Assembly (NCBI GenBank): GCA_031409495.1
Contig: JANNXI010000268.1
Span: 2,075 to 66,074, forward strand
Source of the DNA: Betaproteobacteria bacterium
GTDB lineage: Bacteria > Pseudomonadota > Gammaproteobacteria > Burkholderiales > Usitatibacteraceae
DNA length: 64,000 nt
Direction: 5' to 3'
Positions 54,991-63,969 of this stretch are shown piece after piece. The notes under the pieces were generated by a model. It searched no databases. It was not told where the DNA came from and saw only the letters and a program-made list of their open reading frames with translations. Both the position numbers and the translations under genes were made by a program. Every line of letters starts with the position of its first letter. The stretch's first letter is position 1.

Positions 54991-57900
54991 ATGGAATTAT
55001 CCTCAGAACTTGCGCGTTTTGCGCGCGCCCTTGAACGTGCTTTCGATCCTGCGACCCTTGCGCGCGGCTTAAAAGATGTAAACGAGGGAGCCGTCGTCAC
55101 TAGCACACCATCGCCCAACGGATCCGTCGTCAAAGTGCGTGGGGATGCTTACGCACCATATTTTTTTGTCCAAACGCAAATGAAGCCCGAGCGCTTCAAT
55201 TCCTCAACCTGTACTTGTCCCCTACATGGCAAATGTAGGCATGTCGTTGCGGCTTTAGCCTACACCCATACCCGCGGCCACAAAGCCAGCTTGCAAGCGC
55301 TAACTTCAGAATTAGCGCATGTTGTCGCGCCGGTAACCAACTCCAAAACACCACAAGAAATCGCGGAGGCATTTTTGCGCTTTAAACGCGAAACGCCGCC
55401 CAACGTAATCGAAATAGCAGTGGACAACGAGGCTGCCGTCACGACAAGAATTCCTGCGGTACTCGAAGATGGCCAACCGCGCTCTTGGGGTCCCGCCAGC
55501 GTTGAAGATGGGCTGTCATACAGCACGCAATCATGGATTGATAGCCTTGAGAAGCGCACAAAAATTTTCTCACTCGCGGCAGCGCATGCCGCTACGAGCG
55601 CTGTGCCAACGCCAAAACTCACGCGGCTATTTTTTGTTATCCATCTTGCCGCACCGGGTAATTTCGCGTTTCGGTCATGGCTTGAAATTAATGTGGCGCA
55701 GCAACGTAGCAATGGCGAATGGGGCAAGGTTAAGCAATGGGCAAACTGGCGCGGCCAGCTAGATGCCAACGCCATCACACTAGAAAATCCACAAGATGAA
55801 CGCATCGTTGAAATGCTCTTGGCAAGAGGATTGAATGAAGATTACGCCGCCGCCGACGTCCGCAATGTGGAATCAAGACTCTACGCACTACTGTTGAAAA
55901 CACTGGCTGAAACAGGGCGCCTCTTCACCCCAATGTCGCTAGGTCGGGCGCCATTACGACTCAAAAATACCGAGATAGTCCAACCTACCTGGGTACCACA
56001 AAAAGGCGACGCTACGCGCCTAGGTTTGCGCTTAGAAGATGGCAGCATGGCGTTTTTAATTAAAGACGGCGTATGGGCTATTGACAATGAAAACCATACT
56101 ATATTTGAGCTTAATGTCGCTGTGCCGCTGCCAGAAGTAGGCGCCCTATTTTCTGGGCCCGCGGTTTCGAAAAATGAGCTAGATTATTTGAAGATTCGTT
56201 GGGATAGCTATAACCTACCCCTCGTCCCCGATCCACGCGTAAGCGCGGTACAGATGGTGGATGCCGTACCTATGGTGCCTGTGCTCACTTTACAAACGCT
56301 TTCGCAGGCGGCCAACGCTTGGGCGCGTACGGGTTCACGCTCGATCACCGTTGAAACCGTCACGTTGATGTTTGACTACGCCGGCACCCAAGTCAAGCCG
56401 ATACCACCTGCGCCAAGCTTAATGCGCCTAAACACGCAAACTCAGGGCCATGAAATGCTGCCCCGAGACGGAAAAGCTGAGGCCACTGCACTCGAAACAA
56501 TGACGATCAATAATTTTATTCCCCTTATTCGTCACCCGCAATATGGTCAGGCCAGTGCCAACAGTATTGCCGACCCTGCTTCACCACATGTGTATGCTGC
56601 GGCCAACGGTGCAGCGTTAGCGCACTTTATCGAAGAGGAATTGCCGCTATTAGAAGCAGCAGGCTGGCGCATTCATATTGATCCCTCCTTTAAGCCTAAC
56701 TATGTCTCCATTGACGACTTTGAAGCTAGTCTTGAAGACACCGCTGGCGGTTGGTTTTCATTAACGCTAGGGGTGCGTATTGGCGATAAACGCGTGGACA
56801 TCGCACCGGTGTTGGTAGAGTTGCGCCAGCGCTACCCACATTTATTCCGGCCTACGCTGGCAACCGATCAGCCTGAGCGCGTACCAAAGCGCATCTACGT
56901 GACGATGCCTGATGGTGCGGTGGTAGCGCTTCCAGTTGAGCGGATGCGCAAAATCATGAGCACTGTCACCGATTTGTTGAGTGATAGCGCTGGCAAGCAG
57001 CATATTAAAATTGCCGCTACTGATTTAGGCCGTCTAGCCATATTGGAAGCGCTGCTTGAGAAAAACCTGCATGCCAGCAAAGCAGCGCGGGAGCGCTTAA
57101 CCTTGTTGAAAAGCTTTTCTGGATTGGAAGCGGTAGCCCCCCCTACAGATTTGCAAGCCACGCTGCGCAGTTATCAACAACACGGCTTAAATTGGCTCCA
57201 GTTTTTGCGGCAATATCAACTTGGCGGTTTGCTAGCCGATGATATGGGCCTAGGCAAAACGGTACAAACACTCGCACACATTGCGCTTGAAAAGCAAGCG
57301 GGTCGCCTGACCGCGCCAGTGCTGGTGATCGCACCCACATCGGTGGTGTTTAACTGGCGCGCTGAGTCGCAGCGGCTTACACCAAACCTGAAAATTTTGG
57401 TACTCCACGGCTTGTTGCGCGCAAAACAGTTTAGCGAAATCGCCCAACATGATTTAGTGATTACCTCCTACGCACTGTTGCCACGCGACATCACCGCGTT
57501 AGCAAAGATGAAGTTTTATTTAGTGGTGTTGGACGAAGCCCACTATGTTAAAAACGCCACGACCCAAGCTGCAAAAGCAGTACGGGCGCTTGATGTGCAG
57601 CATAGGCTTTGCTTAACGGGCACGCCGGTTGAGAATAATTTGTCAGAACTTTGGGCGCTATACGATTTTTTAATGCCCGGCTTCTTAGGAAGTACACAGA
57701 ACTTTAAACAGTACTACCGTAACCCGATCGAGAAGGATGGTAACTTAGATTTGCGCGCGCTGTTAGCTAAACGGGTCACGCCATTTTTGCTACGTCGTCG
57801 TAAAGAAGAAGTTGAAAAAGAGCTACCCGCACGTACCGACATGACGCGCATGGTCGAACTTAACGCTGCACAAACCGATTTATACGAGTCCATTCGAGTG

Positions 57901-58584
57901 GTGATGGACAAAAAGGTGCGCGATGCAATCTATACACGGGGTGAAGCCCGCAGCCGCATCGTAATTTTAGACGCACTGTTAAAACTACGCCAAGTATGTT
58001 GCGATCCACGATTAGTGCAGCTACCCCGCGCCCGCGAAGTCAAACATAGCGCTAAGCTTGAAGCCCTAATGGAGCTACTCGAGGAGTTGTTAGCAGAAGG
58101 TCGTCGCGTGTTGGTGTTCTCGCAATTTGCGCAGATGATTGCCCTCATTGGCGAGCGCTTAGATGAATCTAAAATCAAACATGCAGTACTCACGGGCCAA
58201 TCGACCAACCGCGAGCAAACGGTAACGGAATTCCAAGAAGGCGACGTTCCTGTGTTCCTGATTACGTTGAAGGCAGGTGGTGTTGGATTAAATCTAACGG
58301 CTGCCGACGCTGTGATTCACTACGATCCGTGGTGGAATCCAGCGGCCGAAGAGCAAGCCTCTGCCCGCGCCCACCGTATCGGTCAGACTCGACCAGTATT
58401 GGTGGTGAAATTGGTGGTGCGCGGCTCAGTTGAAGAACGGATTATTGCCATGCAGGAGAAAAAAGCGGCATTAGCGCGTGCCGTCACTGACAATGACGAT
58501 GCCGAAATTGACGCCTTAAGTGGTGACGATTTAGTGGCGCTATTTTCTAGCCCAGGCAGTCTGCCGTTAGAATCCGCCGAATGA
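54991..58584 (+). CDS. SWIM zinc-finger / SNF2-family helicase
   Basis: SWIM CTCPLHGKCRHVVAAL near the N-terminus. SNF2 motifs LADDMGLGKTVQT, VVLDEAHYVKN, LTGTPVENN. Helicase C (VLVFSQF..., FLITLKAGGVGLNLTAAD, DPWWNPAAEEQASARAHRIGQ). Confidence 0.9.
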   Translation: MELSSELARFARALERAFDPATLARGLKDVNEGAVVTSTPSPNGSVVKVRGDAYAPYFFVQTQMKPERFNSSTCTCPLHGKCRHVVAALAYTHTRGHKASLQALTSELAHVVAPVTNSKTPQEIAEAFLRFKRETPPNVIEIAVDNEAAVTTRIPAVLEDGQPRSWGPASVEDGLSYSTQSWIDSLEKRTKIFSLAAAHAATSAVPTPKLTRLFFVIHLAAPGNFAFRSWLEINVAQQRSNGEWGKVKQWANWRGQLDANAITLENPQDERIVEMLLARGLNEDYAAADVRNVESRLYALLLKTLAETGRLFTPMSLGRAPLRLKNTEIVQPTWVPQKGDATRLGLRLEDGSMAFLIKDGVWAIDNENHTIFELNVAVPLPEVGALFSGPAVSKNELDYLKIRWDSYNLPLVPDPRVSAVQMVDAVPMVPVLTLQTLSQAANAWARTGSRSITVETVTLMFDYAGTQVKPIPPAPSLMRLNTQTQGHEMLPRDGKAEATALETMTINNFIPLIRHPQYGQASANSIADPASPHVYAAANGAALAHFIEEELPLLEAAGWRIHIDPSFKPNYVSIDDFEASLEDTAGGWFSLTLGVRIGDKRVDIAPVLVELRQRYPHLFRPTLATDQPERVPKRIYVTMPDGAVVALPVERMRKIMSTVTDLLSDSAGKQHIKIAATDLGRLAILEALLEKNLHASKAARERLTLLKSFSGLEAVAPPTDLQATLRSYQQHGLNWLQFLRQYQLGGLLADDMGLGKTVQTLAHIALEKQAGRLTAPVLVIAPTSVVFNWRAESQRLTPNLKILVLHGLLRAKQFSEIAQHDLVITSYALLPRDITALAKMKFYLVVLDEAHYVKNATTQAAKAVRALDVQHRLCLTGTPVENNLSELWALYDFLMPGFLGSTQNFKQYYRNPIEKDGNLDLRALLAKRVTPFLLRRRKEEVEKELPARTDMTRMVELNAAQTDLYESIRVVMDKKVRDAIYTRGEARSRIVILDALLKLRQVCCDPRLVQLPRAREVKHSAKLEALMELLEELLAEGRRVLVFSQFAQMIALIGERLDESKIKHAVLTGQSTNREQTVTEFQEGDVPVFLITLKAGGVGLNLTAADAVIHYDPWWNPAAEEQASARAHRIGQTRPVLVVKLVVRGSVEERIIAMQEKKAALARAVTDNDDAEIDALSGDDLVALFSSPGSLPLESAE

Positions 58585-58607: not shown

Positions 58608-59609
58608 ATGGAAACTTCGATGCAAACAATTACACAAACGGCACCCGGCGGTGTTGAAACAATGCTGCTCATCACGAATGCACCGATACCTGACCCAAAA
58701 CCTGATGAAGTATTAATCAAGGTTGCCTACGCCGGCGTAAACCGACCTGATGTCGCGCAACGCGCAGGCATGTACGCGCCCCCGCCTAACGCCTCACCCA
58801 TAATGGGCCTAGAAGTGTCCGGCCATGTGCTGGCGGTGGGCGCCAACGTTACTGAATGGTGCGTGGGTGATGCGGTGTGCGCCCTCACCCCGGGCGGCGG
58901 CTATGCGCAGTATTGCGTGGCGCTGGCAGCGCACTGTCTGCCGATTCCCGAGGGCTTAAGTTTGCTGGAGGCGGCAGCATTGCCTGAAAACTTTTTCACA
59001 GTATGGGTAAATGTATTCGACACCTGCAAACTAAAAGCTGGCGAGAGTTTGCTGGTGCATGGCGGTTCATCAGGCATTGGTTTAACGGCAATTCAGCTAG
59101 CCCGCGCTTTTGGCGCAACGGTTTACACCACAGTAGGCAATGACGCGAAAGCTGCGTTTTGCAAGGATCTTGGCGCAATTACCTTTAATTACAACACCCA
59201 AGATTGGGCGGCAGAATTAGCTACGCATACCGAAAAGCGAGGCGTTAATGTGATCCTCGATATGGTTGGCGGGTCATATATTGAAAAAAACCTACGCAAT
59301 TTAGCACTTGAAGGCCGCTACTGTTTCATCGCCTTTCTACAAGGCGGCAGCGCCCAAATTGATTTCCGCCCCCTAATGATGAAACGCCAAACCATCACCG
59401 GATCAACCTTGCGCGCACGGCCTGATGCGCACACGGCAGCGATTGCTGACGCGTTAAAATTGCAGGTGTGGCCGCTAATTGAAGCAGGTAAAATAAAGCC
59501 GACGATACACGCGACTTTTCCACTTGCTGATGTCGCGAAGGCACATGCGCTGATGGAGTCATCGGCTCATATTGGCAAGATTATGTTGCTTGTGGGCGGG
59601 GAAATATAA
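58608..59609 (+). CDS. qor: NAD(P)H:quinone oxidoreductase (PIG3/Qor type), intact
   Basis: EVLIKVAYAGVNRPDVAQRAGMYAPPP...MGLEVSGHV and the Rossmann motif VHGGSSGIGLTAIQLA. The last ~385 nt are duplicated at 63587-63969. Confidence 0.88.
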   Translation: METSMQTITQTAPGGVETMLLITNAPIPDPKPDEVLIKVAYAGVNRPDVAQRAGMYAPPPNASPIMGLEVSGHVLAVGANVTEWCVGDAVCALTPGGGYAQYCVALAAHCLPIPEGLSLLEAAALPENFFTVWVNVFDTCKLKAGESLLVHGGSSGIGLTAIQLARAFGATVYTTVGNDAKAAFCKDLGAITFNYNTQDWAAELATHTEKRGVNVILDMVGGSYIEKNLRNLALEGRYCFIAFLQGGSAQIDFRPLMMKRQTITGSTLRARPDAHTAAIADALKLQVWPLIEAGKIKPTIHATFPLADVAKAHALMESSAHIGKIMLLVGGEI

Positions 59610-59666
59610 AAAGTCCACTGAATTGGATATGCTATCTCGTTGCTATCCACAGAGTGTCTTCAGCTT

Positions 59667-60242
59667 TTAGACAAACTGCCTAGCCACTCCTGTGATTGCT
59701 AACCTGTATTTGAGCATTTTCAAACTAACGCCGTAGGTACTCGCGGCTGTTACATCATCTATCTTTAGCTTACGGATAGAAATGAGTGCTTCTCTCGGTA
59801 ATAAAATGCACGCGGAAAGCCAATCAGCCTGGCTCTCTTCTAGAATGTCATAACTCTCTATTAACATTAATCCCTCAGCAGACGTCAAGACCTGACGCGC
59901 ACTGTGCTTAAGTATTTGATGCGCGAGCTCATGCGCTAAGTCACTTGATTGACGAGCAACGCTGTGGGACGAATTTAGAACTATGAGCTTTTTATCACCC
60001 ACGACCAAGGTCACCGCGGACCAACAACTGGGTGTTTTTCCATCATTCCTCAGCAAAACTTCTAGGCACTCTTGCGACAAGTTTGGAATTTCATTGACGA
60101 GTAAAACCTTTATTTTCAAATGACGAGCAAGGCCTCTCAGATCAATTGACTTTTCTTTCGACGTTCCGAGTTCGGCGCGAATCTCACAAGCGTACTTTTC
60201 GCACCACGTCTTAAACCCATGATGGAAAGCACTAGTCGTCAA
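59667..60242 (-). CDS. ImmA/IrrE-family zinc metallopeptidase
   Basis: HEXXH motif in DLAHELAHQILKH. About 190 aa. It overlaps the stop of the upstream XRE gene by 11 nt (the classic XRE-ImmA pair). Confidence 0.8.
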   Translation of the reverse strand: MTTSAFHHGFKTWCEKYACEIRAELGTSKEKSIDLRGLARHLKIKVLLVNEIPNLSQECLEVLLRNDGKTPSCWSAVTLVVGDKKLIVLNSSHSVARQSSDLAHELAHQILKHSARQVLTSAEGLMLIESYDILEESQADWLSACILLPREALISIRKLKIDDVTAASTYGVSLKMLKYRLAITGVARQFV

Positions 60243-60594
60243 ACTGCTCGTCCATCATAAGCTTACTAGCAGAAACGATCATTGCAGCCAAAGCTGTCGC
60301 TGTGTCTTGACTTATCGTAGCGCTCTTTTTGAAGTGAACCTTGACCTTGAGGGATTCGCCAACGGATTGCGAACTTAATCCAAGGAGCAGCGCAGGGTCT
60401 TCACCGAGCCACTTACAAACTTTGCTGAAGGTTTCCAAATCTGGGATCTTGCCATTCTCAATTCGCGAAAGAGTTGCTGAACTAACTCCCACCTCAGTGG
60501 CAGCTTCCCTGATGCCTTTGCCCTCTCTTCGCATCAGAATTTTCTGGGCTAAAAGATCCATTTGGATTGAACTCATCGAACGTGTATCTTTCAT
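60232..60594 (-). CDS. XRE-family helix-turn-helix transcriptional regulator
   Basis: HTH IREAATEVGVSSATLSRIENGKIPDLETF. The start is uncertain: 60594 (MKDTRS) or 60576 (MSSIQ). The track start at 60735 is unlikely because it would run through the divergent promoter. Confidence 0.8.
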   Translation of the reverse strand: MKDTRSMSSIQMDLLAQKILMRREGKGIREAATEVGVSSATLSRIENGKIPDLETFSKVCKWLGEDPALLLGLSSQSVGESLKVKVHFKKSATISQDTATALAAMIVSASKLMMDEQFDD

Positions 60595-60608
60595 AATACA
60601 AAAAAGTG

Positions 60609-60637
60609 TTTGACATGTAAGACGATTTATTGTACAT
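60609..60637 (+). promoter_or_regulatory. near-consensus sigma-70 promoter for the Ubl operon
   Basis: TTGACA (60609-60614), a 17-nt spacer, then TACATT (60632-60637), about 80 nt upstream of ATG 60714. Confidence 0.55.
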
Positions 60638-60650
60638 TTCGTTTCACTGA

Positions 60651-60667
60651 TGAGACAGAGTGTCTCA
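60651..60667. promoter_or_regulatory. 17-bp perfect palindrome, candidate XRE operator
   Basis: TGAGACA-gag-TGTCTCA lies 14 nt downstream of the -10 hexamer, between the divergent XRE and Ubl genes. Confidence 0.5.
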
Positions 60668-60713
60668 CAGCGACGTAGTGGCGTCAATGCCACCTGCCAA
60701 AAAAGGACTAGAA

Positions 60714-60992
60714 ATGACTGCTGATTTCGAAACAAGTAAACAAGAGCATCGTAATGAAATTATCGTAATCGTTAATGGACGGCAAAAAGTAGTTTCCAAA
60801 GACACTTTCTTCTATTCAGAGATAGTGATACTCGCGTTTGAAAATGCTACTTTCAATGATACGACAGTATTTACCGTAACATTTTCTCGCGGGCATGACG
60901 CGGATAAACAAGCGGGCGTATTAGTGGCTGGCGATACGGTTAAGGTTAAGAAAGGAATGATATTTAATGTCACGTCAACTGATAAATCTTAG
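60714..60992 (+). CDS. multiubiquitin-type beta-grasp (ubiquitin-like) protein, single domain
   Basis: Start at ATG 60714 (AAGGA-containing RBS). IIVIVNGRQKVVSKDTFFYSEIVILAF...VKVKKGMIFNVTSTDKS matches the prokaryotic 'multiubiquitin' domain as I remember it (IxVNG...; C-terminal FNVTxTDKS). Confidence 0.65.
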   Translation: MTADFETSKQEHRNEIIVIVNGRQKVVSKDTFFYSEIVILAFENATFNDTTVFTVTFSRGHDADKQAGVLVAGDTVKVKKGMIFNVTSTDKS

Positions 60993-62145
60993 TCCAGATC
61001 TCAAAAGGCTATCGGACGAAGGCTACGACATAGAGATAAAAGCCGGATTTCTCTTTGTACATTCTGTCCCTTATTTGAACGCTAACCAAGAGCTTTGCAG
61101 TGGCACTTTGGTGTCAACTTTATCGCTCGCTGGCGACATTACAACAGTGCCCAGCGATCATGTAGTACATTTTATTGGCGAATATCCGCATCAAAAAGGA
61201 GGGGGCGAAATCACGCAGATAAAGCACGCGAATGAAACTAAATCTATCAGCGAAGGTACTGTAATTAACTTTTCTTTCTCCAACAAGCCGGCTGGAGGTT
61301 ACGCAAATTACCATGCAAAGATGACACGTTACATTGACATAATTACGGCCGAGGCAGAGTCAGCCTTTCCGCTGAGCCGAGTAACGGCCAAAAGTTTCAA
61401 ACCCATTGAAGGCAAGGCGGAGCACTCAGTTTTTCAATATCTTGACTCATCCTCAAGCCGCGGAGGCTTTCAGGCGAGCTCTCAAAAGCTGGTGGGGCTA
61501 AAGGTCGGAATAATCGGGTTAGGCGGAACCGGATCTTACATATTGGACTTAATTGCAAAAACGCCGATTGCTGAAATACATCTCTTCGATGATGACCATT
61601 TTCTACAACACAATGCGTTTCGATCACCTGGCGCGGCATCACTTTACGATCTCAAGGCTCAATTGATCAAGGTCGATTATTATCAAAAGGCGTATTCAAA
61701 ACTTCATAAAAATATCTTTGCACATCCCCTTAAGGTCACCGAGTCAAACGCCGCGGAAATGGCTCCCCTTGACTTCGTTTTCATTTGCGTCGATAGCGCA
61801 AGTTCAAGACAATTTTTAGTCCGCAAACTGGAAGAAATGCAGATATCGTTCATCGACGTAGGCATGGGAATAGTATCGGTGAACGATATGTTAATTGGGC
61901 AGGTGCGCACTACTATCAGCACAGCAAGCACGAGGGATAGCGCAATAAAATCGATTCCGCTCAGCGACACTGAGAACGATAATGAGTATGCCACGAACAT
62001 TCAGATTTGCGAACTAAATGCATTAAATGCGTGCATGGCAGTAATGAAATGGAAAAAGCAATACGGCTTTTATCAAGATCTCGAGAACGAGATTTGCAGC
62101 ATTTACGAGTTGAATACCAATTTGATTGTAAATTTGAACCAATGA
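60967..62145 (+). CDS. E2-like N-terminal domain fused to a ThiF/E1-type adenylyltransferase
   Basis: E1 core: VGIIGLGGTGSYILDLIAK (GxGxxG), FDDDHFLQHNAFRSP (D-x-D...N-x-x-R), DFVFICVDSASSR, FIDVGMG. The N-terminal ~150 aa carry HSVPYLNANQELCSG (HPN-like motif plus a Cys about 12 residues later). It overlaps the Ubl gene by 26 nt. Confidence 0.75.
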   Translation: MSRQLINLSPDLKRLSDEGYDIEIKAGFLFVHSVPYLNANQELCSGTLVSTLSLAGDITTVPSDHVVHFIGEYPHQKGGGEITQIKHANETKSISEGTVINFSFSNKPAGGYANYHAKMTRYIDIITAEAESAFPLSRVTAKSFKPIEGKAEHSVFQYLDSSSSRGGFQASSQKLVGLKVGIIGLGGTGSYILDLIAKTPIAEIHLFDDDHFLQHNAFRSPGAASLYDLKAQLIKVDYYQKAYSKLHKNIFAHPLKVTESNAAEMAPLDFVFICVDSASSRQFLVRKLEEMQISFIDVGMGIVSVNDMLIGQVRTTISTASTRDSAIKSIPLSDTENDNEYATNIQICELNALNACMAVMKWKKQYGFYQDLENEICSIYELNTNLIVNLNQ

Positions 62146-62606
62146 GAAAGCCAAAAAATTTACAGCACAGATTTGTGGAATTTATACCGAGCGATTTAGA
62201 CAAGGGTGTTGTATACATCTCAATCGAGTATGCAACCGCGACGCATTTATGCTGCTGCGGTTGCGGCTCCGAGGTGGTAACCCCTTTGTCGCCGACAGAC
62301 TGGGAAATAACCTTCGACGGCGCCTCTATATCTATCTCACCTTCTATTGGCAACTGGAACTTTGCCTGCAAATCACACTATTGGATTATTCGAAATTTCG
62401 TGCATTGGGCAGAGCCGTGGGAGATCCACAAGATCAAAGCAAATCGCGAGAAGGATGAGGCTAACAAAAACGCTTACTTTTTAATCAATAGCACTCAAAA
62501 AAATGGTGCTTCGCCAGACAAGCTTACGCCCAAAGCCACCCGCGCAACATGTAACTCAAAAAACACTTTTCTCGCTCGAATACGAAAATTACTCATGCTA
62601 AATTAA
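62142..62606 (+). CDS. DUF6527-like Cys-cluster protein
   Basis: Start at ATG 62142 (ATGA overlap with the E1 stop). FVEFIPSDL...YISIEYATATHLCCCGCGSEVVTPLSPTDWEI...SPSIGNWNFACKSHYWI. CxxC...CxxH spacing suggests a Zn knuckle/treble clef. The family name is from memory. Confidence 0.6.
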   Translation: MRKPKNLQHRFVEFIPSDLDKGVVYISIEYATATHLCCCGCGSEVVTPLSPTDWEITFDGASISISPSIGNWNFACKSHYWIIRNFVHWAEPWEIHKIKANREKDEANKNAYFLINSTQKNGASPDKLTPKATRATCNSKNTFLARIRKLLMLN

Positions 62607-62683
62607 GCTTATCCCCAATTTCAAATAACCGATTTGCCAATTATTTTCGGCAAGACACTTACACAACTCCTCAATATTCCAAC

Positions 62684-63583
62684 ATGAAAAAAACAACTCT
62701 TCAAATCGAAACTGGCATTGATAGCCTCGCTAAAATCACTACAAACATCGTCAAACTAGGCACCCTTATTGGTGCGTTCTTTGTAACTATGTATTGCTTA
62801 AGGATAGATCACTTTCCTCAAGATCTTTCTTTAGGCGATGGCTTGTTGCTGCTGCTGGCGGGCGGGGCGTTTGGAGCAGTGTATGTATTTTTTCTTGTCT
62901 GCCATATCGCTTTGGGGACCGCCCTTTTCCCAGTTACAAAATTCATATGTAAAGCAATTGTCGCATTGCCATTTTTACGCTTCGCGCAAAAAGAACATCT
63001 CCACCGATTCACGCCGTTTTCTTGGCAGTCGCTTCCATTTTCTTTTGTAGCAGTCCTATTGATTTATCTCATGGGAAGAAATGACCCAATCTTGTATTGG
63101 CTGTTGCCTTTGTGGGCTGTTGCGCTCCACATTTTTTATTCAGTATTTTCGTCCTGCGGAGACAAAATACGCATTCTCGAGGGCGCGCAAAACTCTATTG
63201 TGCACAACATCGTAAGAGCGCCTATCGACTGCAACCAAGACATTGAAACGCTTAAAAACACACGAATCGCTACCCTTGCAGCGATTGTGATCGCGCCACT
63301 AGTTGCGAGCGGCATCTACGGACAGATTCTTGACTCAGCCATGCGGCTTGCCAACGTCCGGTTAGAGTCGCCCACCATCTATCTGAAAGACCCTTACTTA
63401 GCGCTGCTCCCAAAAAATTTGATCACCAAGACCCAACGAATTTCAAAGGATTATGTGGCTTTTGAGGGTGCGAAGGTGTTCTTCAAGGGATTCGGAAAAA
63501 CGACAATTATCAGCTTTGCTGACGGAATGGTTCGGCGGCAGCTTGAAATCCCCAACGACCAGATCATCGTCGAGAATCGATAG
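62684..63583 (+). CDS. 5-TM membrane protein with a ~85-aa soluble C-terminus (candidate effector)
   Basis: Hydrophobic helices (LGTLIGAFFVTMYCL, LLLLLAGGAFGAVYVFFLVCHIALG, FSFVAVLLIYLMG, LYWLLPLWAVALHIFYSVF, IATLAAIVIAPLVASGIY). Last gene of the islet. No recognisable family. Confidence 0.6.
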   Translation: MKKTTLQIETGIDSLAKITTNIVKLGTLIGAFFVTMYCLRIDHFPQDLSLGDGLLLLLAGGAFGAVYVFFLVCHIALGTALFPVTKFICKAIVALPFLRFAQKEHLHRFTPFSWQSLPFSFVAVLLIYLMGRNDPILYWLLPLWAVALHIFYSVFSSCGDKIRILEGAQNSIVHNIVRAPIDCNQDIETLKNTRIATLAAIVIAPLVASGIYGQILDSAMRLANVRLESPTIYLKDPYLALLPKNLITKTQRISKDYVAFEGAKVFFKGFGKTTIISFADGMVRRQLEIPNDQIIVENR

Positions 63584-63586
63584 CCA

Positions 63587-63969
63587 CCCACACCGAAAAG
63601 CGCGCGTTAACGTCATCCTAGATATGGTCGGCGGTTCATACATTGAAAAAAGACCTACGCAATTTAGCGCTAGAAGGCCGCTATTGCTTCATCGCTTTTT
63701 TGCAAGGCGGCAGCGCCCAAATTGATTTCCGCCCCCTAATGATGAAACGCCAAACCATCACCGGATCAACCTTGCGCGCACGGCCTGATGCGCACAAGGC
63801 AGCGATTGCTGACGCGTTAAAATTGCAGGTGTGGCCGCTAATTGAAGCAGGTAAAATAAAGCCGACGATACACGCGACTTTTCCACTCGCTGAGGTCGCG
63901 AAGGCACATGCATTGATGGAATCATCGGCTCATATTGGCAAGATTATGTTGCTTGTGGGCGGCGAGTAG
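63587..63969 (+). pseudogene. displaced 3' fragment of qor (right direct repeat)
   Basis: It aligns to 59224-59609 at a constant offset of 4363. The 5' ~70 nt carry many substitutions plus a 1-nt deletion and a 1-nt insertion that create an in-frame stop. The remainder encodes the Qor C-terminus (...HALMESSAHIGKIMLLVGGE*). Track ORFs 63453-63725 and 63643-63969 are fragments of it. Confidence 0.85.

Follow-up and report, generated by a model that had tools for sequence, protein, structure and literature searches.

A Type II Bub operon with putative CapH/CapP regulators and a membrane-protein gene of an unnamed family on a recently exchanged betaproteobacterial islet

The DNA analysed here, referred to as the window, is a stretch of 64,000 nucleotides of contig JANNXI010000268.1 (positions 2,075 to 66,074 of the forward strand) in the GenBank assembly GCA_031409495.1 of a Betaproteobacteria bacterium. 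Near its end lie four closely spaced genes on the plus strand, the first three of which form a Type II Bub operon (6E.2/DUF6527), a bacterial system for tagging with a ubiquitin-like protein (Ubl), encoding BubA, BubBD and BubE. The bubA gene (60714-60992) codes for a protein of 92 amino acids (aa), read from an ATG with an AAGGA Shine-Dalgarno sequence and ending in ...FNVTSTDKS, which possesses the Pfam domain Multi_ubiq (E-value 2.5e-13). It is followed by bubBD (60967-62145), coding for an E2-E1 fusion protein of 392 aa with the domains DUF6791 (1.2e-51) and ThiF (3.9e-12), and by bubE (62142-62606), whose product of 154 aa, counted from the ATG of an ATGA overlap, has a DUF6527 domain (9.7e-24) and a C-terminal extension. 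The bubA and bubBD genes overlap by 26 nt and bubBD and bubE by the 4 nt of the ATGA. The fourth gene (62684-63583), for a membrane protein of 299 aa with no match in Pfam, PADLOC, NCBIfam or PHROGs, begins after a gap of 77 nt. An earlier note on this DNA had described the four genes with the same spacing, and their coordinates are confirmed by the list of open reading frames (ORFs). Taken as a whole, the locus can with high confidence be read as a Type II Bub operon under the control of CapH/CapP, situated on a mobile islet together with an unrelated membrane-protein gene.

Operons formerly known as '6E/DUF6527' were renamed Bub by Ye, Gong, Chambers and Corbett (bioRxiv 10.1101/2024.11.21.623953, hereafter Ye et al.), with a companion preprint on Ubls (10.1101/2024.11.21.623966). 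Those of Type II are defined by BubA (the Ubl), BubBD (the E2-E1 fusion) and BubE (DUF6527), and typically lack a JAB peptidase (Ye et al.). The pathway proceeds through oxyesters, formed on a tyrosine of the E1 crossover loop and on a serine of the E2, the latter with a lysine and a histidine in Type II. BubA and BubBD of E. coli ZDHYS365 form ATP-dependent conjugates that are lost in the mutants R219A, Y342F and S106A, BubE is a zinc-containing Ser-His protease which strips BubA conjugates, and a heterologously expressed Bub system attaches BubA to E. coli proteins (Ye et al.). The window locus is assigned to Type II because its domain content and gene order fit the published definition, because the catalytic residues reported by Ye et al. 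are all present and match the mutated positions, and because its BubA is homologous to the crystallised BubA of E. coli ZDHYS365. No JAB domain was found among the proteins of the islet with Pfam, PADLOC or NCBIfam, in agreement with the earlier note.

That note had recognised a ubiquitin-like cassette in which a beta-grasp protein of the multiubiquitin type is combined with an E2-like/E1 fusion and a DUF6527-like protein with a cysteine cluster, and had drawn a link to Bil/Bub-type systems. The Pfam matches bear out the composition, including the beta-grasp nature of the small protein, and the Bub architecture of the locus bears out the link. Its view that the cassette could not be assigned to a characterised system does not hold, as both the Type II Bub architecture and the catalytic residues of Ye et al. 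are present. The locus is thus a further instance of a named bacterial ubiquitin-like tagging system and not a new system. The identification itself adds little, as Type II Bub operons already have a description, a name and a partial characterisation, and the BubBD family has very many members.

For comparison, 80 loci from species-representative genomes were assembled together with two plasmid loci (Spirosoma and Rhizobium), giving 82. BubA lies upstream of BubBD in 80 of these and BubE downstream in 79. The two plasmid loci have the same gene trio, annotated as multiubiquitin domain-containing protein, ThiF family adenylyltransferase and DUF6527 family protein. At an E-value cut-off of 1e-10 the BubBD family numbers at least 7,987 clusters, all carrying PF00899 and PF20590, and 128 plasmid records were matched by BubBD with tblastn. 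One of these similarities, to a plasmid-encoded protein of Runella slithyformis DSM 19594 (49% identity over 98% of the query), is to an organism whose BubBD appears in the alignment of Ye et al. Beyond its counterpart in a sister metagenome-assembled genome (MAG), the closest relative of the window BubBD is 58% identical. A distant-mode DNA search matched no Bub genes in 5,426 complete E. coli genomes, BubBD had no protein match in 50,697 phage records, and PHROGs gave nothing useful.

BubBD is made up of an E2-like DUF6791 domain (residues ~1-161) and an E1 adenylation domain of the ThiF family (~171-392), and NCBIfam places it in PRK06153.1-4 (2.4e-160). The E1 adenylation motifs noted earlier are present, these being the nucleotide loop GLGGTGS (residues 184-190) and R219, and the E1 part is homologous to the Citrobacter BubCD structures 9EAV/9EA4 (E-value 1.6e-8). 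The other key residues are H65, S105, K107 and Y341; H65, S105, R219 and Y341 are invariant in all 82 BubBD proteins and K107 is found in 79. In E. coli BubBD the counterparts of S105, R219 and Y341 are S106, R219 and Y342, the residues mutated by Ye et al. The earlier proposal of Cys44/Ser45 as the active site of the E2 could not be upheld, since neither position is conserved and the conserved residue of the domain is Ser105. The family is said to have no catalytic cysteine (Ye et al.). Position 75 is a cysteine in 77 of the 82 proteins, within a YPC motif, and a histidine in the window protein; this near-conserved cysteine is dispensable here. In an AlphaFold2 model of the E2-like domain, built from 71 sequences (predicted local distance difference test [pLDDT] 83), a helix is followed by a four-strand meander, a long loop bearing S105 and a long helix. 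As predicted, the domain shows what would be a UBC core minus its two C-terminal helices, as Ye et al. describe for BubB.

The product of bubE is predicted to be a Ser-His protease, acting as a deconjugase, with a zinc cluster of four cysteines (C4). Residues C37, C39, C41 and C76, along with S68 and H79, are invariant in all 79 BubE proteins, and the pattern matches C57, C59, C61 and C99, S92 and H102 of the Citrobacter BubE. With the C4 cluster and S68/H79 present in this protein, the claim that the cassette has no recognisable deconjugase does not hold.

BubA of the window is a single beta-grasp domain. It aligns with beta-grasp domain 3 of E. coli BubA (PDB 9CD2; E-value 1.1e-10), and the TDKS terminus is common to both. 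The earlier note was right that this Ubl has no Gly-Gly, but the feature is not distinctive. The C-terminal residue is serine in 80 of 80 Type II BubA proteins and glycine in none, within the motif N-V-T-x-T-(D/N)-(K/R)-S, and the biochemically active BubA of E. coli ZDHYS365 likewise ends in serine. The non-glycine terminus is therefore real, yet ordinary for the Type II family. As the active E. coli protein ends in the same way, the E1 domains of Type II most likely adenylate the native C-terminal serine with no prior processing, and the invariance of this residue suggests that the E1 activates serine rather than glycine. Activation without processing agrees with the absence of a JAB domain; Type I, by contrast, needs JAB cleavage to expose Gly229.

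In all of 80 loci, drawn from many bacterial phyla and from two archaeal MAGs, bubBD starts exactly 26 nt ahead of the end of bubA. The overlap (60967-60992 in the window) has the nucleotide consensus TTCAATGTCACAGCAACTGATAAGTCGTAGCCCnGA and is dual-coding, specifying the tail of BubA, whose last eight codons fall within it, as well as the BubBD N-terminus M-S-x-Q-L-I-x-x-S-P-D. Such a constant overlap makes translational coupling of bubA and bubBD probable. The main text of Ye et al. makes no mention of the C-terminal serine, and the pattern of overlap and terminus is not discussed there. Both the invariant terminus and the overlap bear on what Bub does.

Divergent from bubA is a pair of minus-strand genes which overlap by 11 nt. 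The first (60232-60576) encodes a CapH-like helix-turn-helix (HTH) repressor of the XRE family of ~109-114 aa (HTH_3, 6.3e-9; HTH_31, 6.7e-8), the gene being called as 109 aa in a near-identical MAG locus (JAYUOW010000318.1). The second (59667-60242) encodes a CapP-like zinc metallopeptidase of the ImmA/IrrE (M78) family of 191 aa, with a HELAH motif (Peptidase_M78, 4.6e-16) and a modest match of 34 bits to the capP model of PADLOC (4.7e-9). The XRE/ImmA switch seen in the earlier note is thereby supported, and by its domains the pair matches the CapH+CapP module. CapH+CapP flank 31%, and CapW 8%, of 544 Bub operons (Ye et al.), and in the comparison set the neighbour most often met beside Type II Bub is an XRE-type gene lying no more than three genes upstream (47 of 81 loci).

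The intergenic region between capH and bubA (60577-60713) holds promoter-like sites and a palindrome and may serve as a divergent control region. A consensus scan placed a sigma-70-like promoter towards bubA at 60610-60638 (TTGACA-17-TACATT) and a weaker, facing promoter-like site towards capH at 60621-60593. A perfect 7+7 palindrome, TGAGACA-GAG-TGTCTCA, at 60651-60667, between the promoter-like site and the start of bubA, is a candidate operator for CapH. The promoter and terminator scans gave counts no higher than those in shuffled sequences, and both promoter and operator are thus suggestions only.

The islet on which these genes lie is bounded by a 389-bp direct repeat, found by a repeat search and pairwise alignment. 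On its left is a quinone-oxidoreductase-like gene, qor (58608-59609), which is intact and completed by the upstream copy of the repeat (59218-59609, plus strand). On its right the 3′ end of qor recurs as a frameshifted duplicate at 63581-63969 on the same strand (ADH_zinc_N_2, 1.2e-13), beginning exactly with the stop codon that ends the membrane-protein gene. The inserted unit consists of 59610-63580 plus one repeat, some 4.4 kb with six genes, and no integrase was found inside it. Its GC content is 0.40-0.47 compared with ~0.52 in the flanks, and the repeat and the lower GC both corroborate the islet location proposed earlier. The downstream copy of the repeat has two frameshifts and is 86-99% identical to the upstream one in a mosaic manner, with 86-88% over the first ~70 nt and ~99% over the central 200 nt. 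A target-site duplication was considered and rejected, the repeat being too long and too diverged for this; it resembles a copy of the qor 3′ end carried by the element.

Among public sequences the nearest is the MAG contig JAYUOW010000318.1 (Betaproteobacteria bacterium GL106_DN_concoct_191), where six genes identical in content occupy the same site. The islet is 97.5-100% identical to its counterpart there in 200-nt bins, whereas identity falls to 72-86% in the SNF2-helicase and qor genes on its flank and to ~91% in the repeats. Because the islet is near-identical while the flanking genes are much less similar, it is clear that the whole islet, membrane-protein gene included, was recently exchanged between diverged genomes, probably by recombination at the qor 3′ repeats. 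The helicase gene (54991-58584, 1197 aa, SNF2 family) lies immediately upstream of qor and is part of the diverged chromosomal flank rather than of the islet; SNF2-rel_dom, ResIII and Helicase_C domains were found in its counterpart on JAYUOW010000318.1. With its regulators, three Bub genes and one membrane-protein gene, the islet is a minimal mobile unit which would be convenient for phenotype screens.

The protein encoded by the fourth gene has five transmembrane (TM) segments by a hydropathy count, in keeping with the 5-TM protein described earlier. Its AlphaFold2 model (pLDDT 76) has about six long helices and, after them, a small beta-barrel at the C-terminus, the hydrophobic helical part making up the N-terminal two thirds. 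Foldseek searches with this model returned nothing significant in PDB (best E-value 0.035) or BFVD (0.047), and the barrel has only a weak SH3/Tudor-like resemblance. There are 30 close clusters of homologues, and a profile search of 1.84 billion proteins gave 446 representatives, none of them with a name or a Pfam domain.

The earlier note had regarded this gene as part of a four-gene form of the system with a possible membrane effector. No homologue of it was present in any of the 81 other Type II Bub loci, and no gene family recurs downstream of bubE across Bub loci. Conversely, Bub genes are absent from all five contexts of close homologues and from two remote ones. In an Andreprevotia prophage a homologue is flanked by genes for tail completion and for the tail tube, a typical position for a moron, and another is on an Acinetobacter phage contig. 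On a Vibrio plasmid a homologue directly follows a PD-(D/E)XK nuclease gene with a divergent WYL regulator, in three Pseudomonas islands it follows genes for a MazG-like protein and an SLFN-type helicase, and in a metagenomic contig it adjoins prfA. The unnamed family occurs at moron positions of prophages, on plasmids and in variable islands, and it is repeatedly encountered just downstream of other defence-type cassettes. Because it is absent from the other Bub loci and has homologues in non-Bub contexts, we conclude that the gene is independent mobile cargo and not a conserved component of Bub. It is probably co-transcribed with the Bub operon and is possibly a stand-alone exclusion or defence gene.

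With regard to the position which this gene occupies, a same-strand ORF within 100 nt (≤100 nt) after bubE was present in ~16 of 70 Type II Bub loci, and these ORFs are mutually unrelated. Of ten that were tested, nine match no Pfam family and the other is an AAA_21/AAA_15 ATPase; some of the ORFs, in high-GC genomes, may be spurious. Effectors or targets of Bub might be sought in the slot after bubE, which is often taken by genes without a family.

A working model for the locus can be put forward by homology with CapH/CapP found beside CBASS (for regulation), by homology with the Bub systems of E. coli ZDHYS365 and Citrobacter (for conjugation and its reversal) and from the present analysis (for the membrane protein). 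CapH would repress the divergent promoter until single-stranded DNA, arising from DNA damage or phage replication, activates CapP, which would then cleave CapH and derepress the operon. The E1 domain of a BubBD dimer would adenylate the C-terminal carboxylate of BubA, that of the native Ser92 with no need of JAB processing, and BubA would next form an oxyester with Tyr341 of the crossover loop. From there it would pass to Ser105 of the E2-like domain, with Lys107 and His65 assisting, as a second oxyester, and then to lysines of target proteins. BubE, as a zinc-stabilised Ser68-His79 protease, would cleave BubA conjugates and so limit or reset the pathway. The membrane protein would be independent cargo, perhaps expressed by read-through from the same promoter, and stand outside the conjugation machinery.

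A number of observations weigh against parts of this interpretation. Each of its mechanistic steps is carried over from homologues with 45-58% identity or less, and the choice of S68 over the nearly invariant S78 as the catalytic serine of BubE was made from spacing only. With respect to the E2 fold, a profile of 61 E2-like domains had only chance matches among PDB sequences, and the top 50 Foldseek matches of the model in PDB include Atg10, UBC-type E2s and UFC1, all with E-values above 0.1 and TM-scores of at most 0.36; the assignment of the fold draws on the literature and the topology, and that of family membership on homology to a structurally solved family. No Bub operon was found to protect E. 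coli against phages (Ye et al.), and a 2026 EMBO J paper by the same group still describes phage protection as undemonstrated and suggests that Bub may mediate more global stress responses. As to the membrane-protein gene, neither a terminator-like site nor a separate promoter-like site was found in the 77-nt gap upstream of it, and the gene travels with the Bub operon in both genomes.

Owing to this gap, the lack of a terminator and the shared transfer, a local functional link between the membrane protein and Bub keeps a small probability. It is conceivable that all four genes form one system in which the 5-TM protein is a dedicated effector or target, for example a membrane-disrupting effector of abortive infection switched on by BubA conjugation. 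The gene is on the same strand and inside the islet, the habit of its homologues of trailing other defence-type cassettes fits a reusable effector, and the variable same-strand genes after bubE in other Bub loci point in the same direction. Nevertheless, we regard such a system as unlikely given the complete lack of the gene and of any recurrent downstream family in the other Bub loci, the Bub-free surroundings of its homologues, one of them in a moron position, and the three-gene definition of the published Bub operons. We hold it to be similarly improbable, perhaps slightly more so, that the membrane protein is the missing output of Bub, a membrane effector or anchor whose activity or stability is governed by the conjugation of BubA and its removal by BubE, and which is produced by read-through from the CapH/CapP promoter. 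The hydrophobic extension of BubE, which has been proposed to bind membranes, may be cited beside this idea. If it were true, the variable and mostly family-less genes that follow bubE in about one fifth of Type II loci would be effectors or targets that can replace one another, and the absence of a phage phenotype from three-gene Bub operons tested by themselves could be accounted for.

Independent cargo therefore being the favoured reading of the membrane-protein gene, the role of the remaining machinery may be considered. The same enzymes could serve a general response to DNA damage or stress by modifying host proteins, rather than anti-phage immunity, and this has a real, if lesser, chance of being correct. 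It is in line with the lack of phage protection in E. coli and the suggestion of the Bub authors that more global stress responses may be involved, with regulators that sense DNA damage and with the conjugation of BubA to E. coli proteins upon heterologous expression. On the other hand, the recent transfer of the islet, the numerous plasmid records and the defence-typical regulators speak for accessory, conflict-type genes, which mobility and such regulators fit better than they do housekeeping stress genes. That the locus encodes a sulfur-carrier or biosynthetic adenylation pair of the ThiF/MoeB type, and no protein conjugation, is extremely improbable. The idea could draw on the ThiF domain in Pfam, on weak NCBIfam matches to ThiF, MoeB and TcdA, and on homologues which are named 'tRNA A37 threonylcarbamoyladenosine dehydratase' in databases. 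These matches are, however, far below the curated cut-offs (32 bits against 275 for ThiF and 18.5 against 266 for MoeB, with TcdA also far below), by which a sulfur-transfer identity is effectively refuted. Moreover, a rhodanese, thiazole or molybdopterin partner gene is lacking, as is any other biosynthetic neighbour, BubA does not end in Gly-Gly, 79-82 loci have the E2-like DUF6791 domain and the DUF6527 protease as constant partners, and homologues make protein-protein conjugates in vitro.

Among the systems that resemble the Type II Bub operon of the window, the CapH+CapP, ImmR-ImmA and DdrO-IrrE switches (Lau et al., bioRxiv 10.1101/2022.04.27.489752) share the divergent, overlapping pair of HTH and M78 genes upstream of an operon, a likeness which for the window pair is one of sequence-family membership only. 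Type II CBASS (Cap2/Cap3) has the E2-E1 fusion architecture and the CapH/CapP regulators in common with it. However, Cap2 works through cysteines and its conjugation substrate is the CD-NTase instead of a Ubl, Cap3 belongs to the JAB peptidases, and the window has no cyclase or effector; the PADLOC 'E1-E2' models match only the nucleotide-binding region of BubBD (residues ~170-290, best 8e-9). The Bil system (BilABCD) also brings Ubl, E1 and E2 activities together in one compact operon, located on mobile or defence islands, and has a demonstrated anti-phage mechanism, the conjugation of its Ubl to a protein of the phage tail. Its separate E1 and E2 with catalytic cysteines, its JAB deubiquitinase and its Ubl, usually of two domains and ending in glycine, have no equivalent in the window, and membership of Bil is ruled out by the fused E2-E1, the lack of a conserved cysteine and of a JAB domain, and a BubA which ends in serine.

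Closer still is Type I Bub of Citrobacter sp. RHBSTW-00271 (BubAB, BubCD and BubE; 9EA4, 9EAV), which shares the E1 domain and the DUF6527 protein BubE and likewise uses oxyester chemistry via an E1 tyrosine and an E2 serine, a chemistry predicted here by homology. In that system the Ubl is fused to the E2 and the JAB peptidase to the E1, the Ubl is freed by JAB cleavage after a conserved glycine, and the E2 serine is accompanied by histidine and aspartate, whereas the window has lysine and histidine, a free Ubl ending in serine, an E2-E1 fusion and no JAB. The nearest characterised relative is the Type II Bub operon of E. coli ZDHYS365, which differs in having a BubA of three beta-grasp domains (222 aa) instead of one (92 aa), although single-domain Ubls make up 40% of Bub Ubls (Ye et al.). 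The islet of the window is inserted at the 3′ end of qor and not at a tRNA gene, and the locus is set apart further by CapH+CapP, by the additional orphan membrane-protein gene and by its uncultured, betaproteobacterium-like host. The two nonetheless share the same three genes in the same order, the E2 Ser/Lys/His residues, the E1 Arg219 and crossover-loop tyrosine, the C4 cluster and Ser-His dyad of DUF6527, the lack of a JAB peptidase and the TDKS end of BubA.

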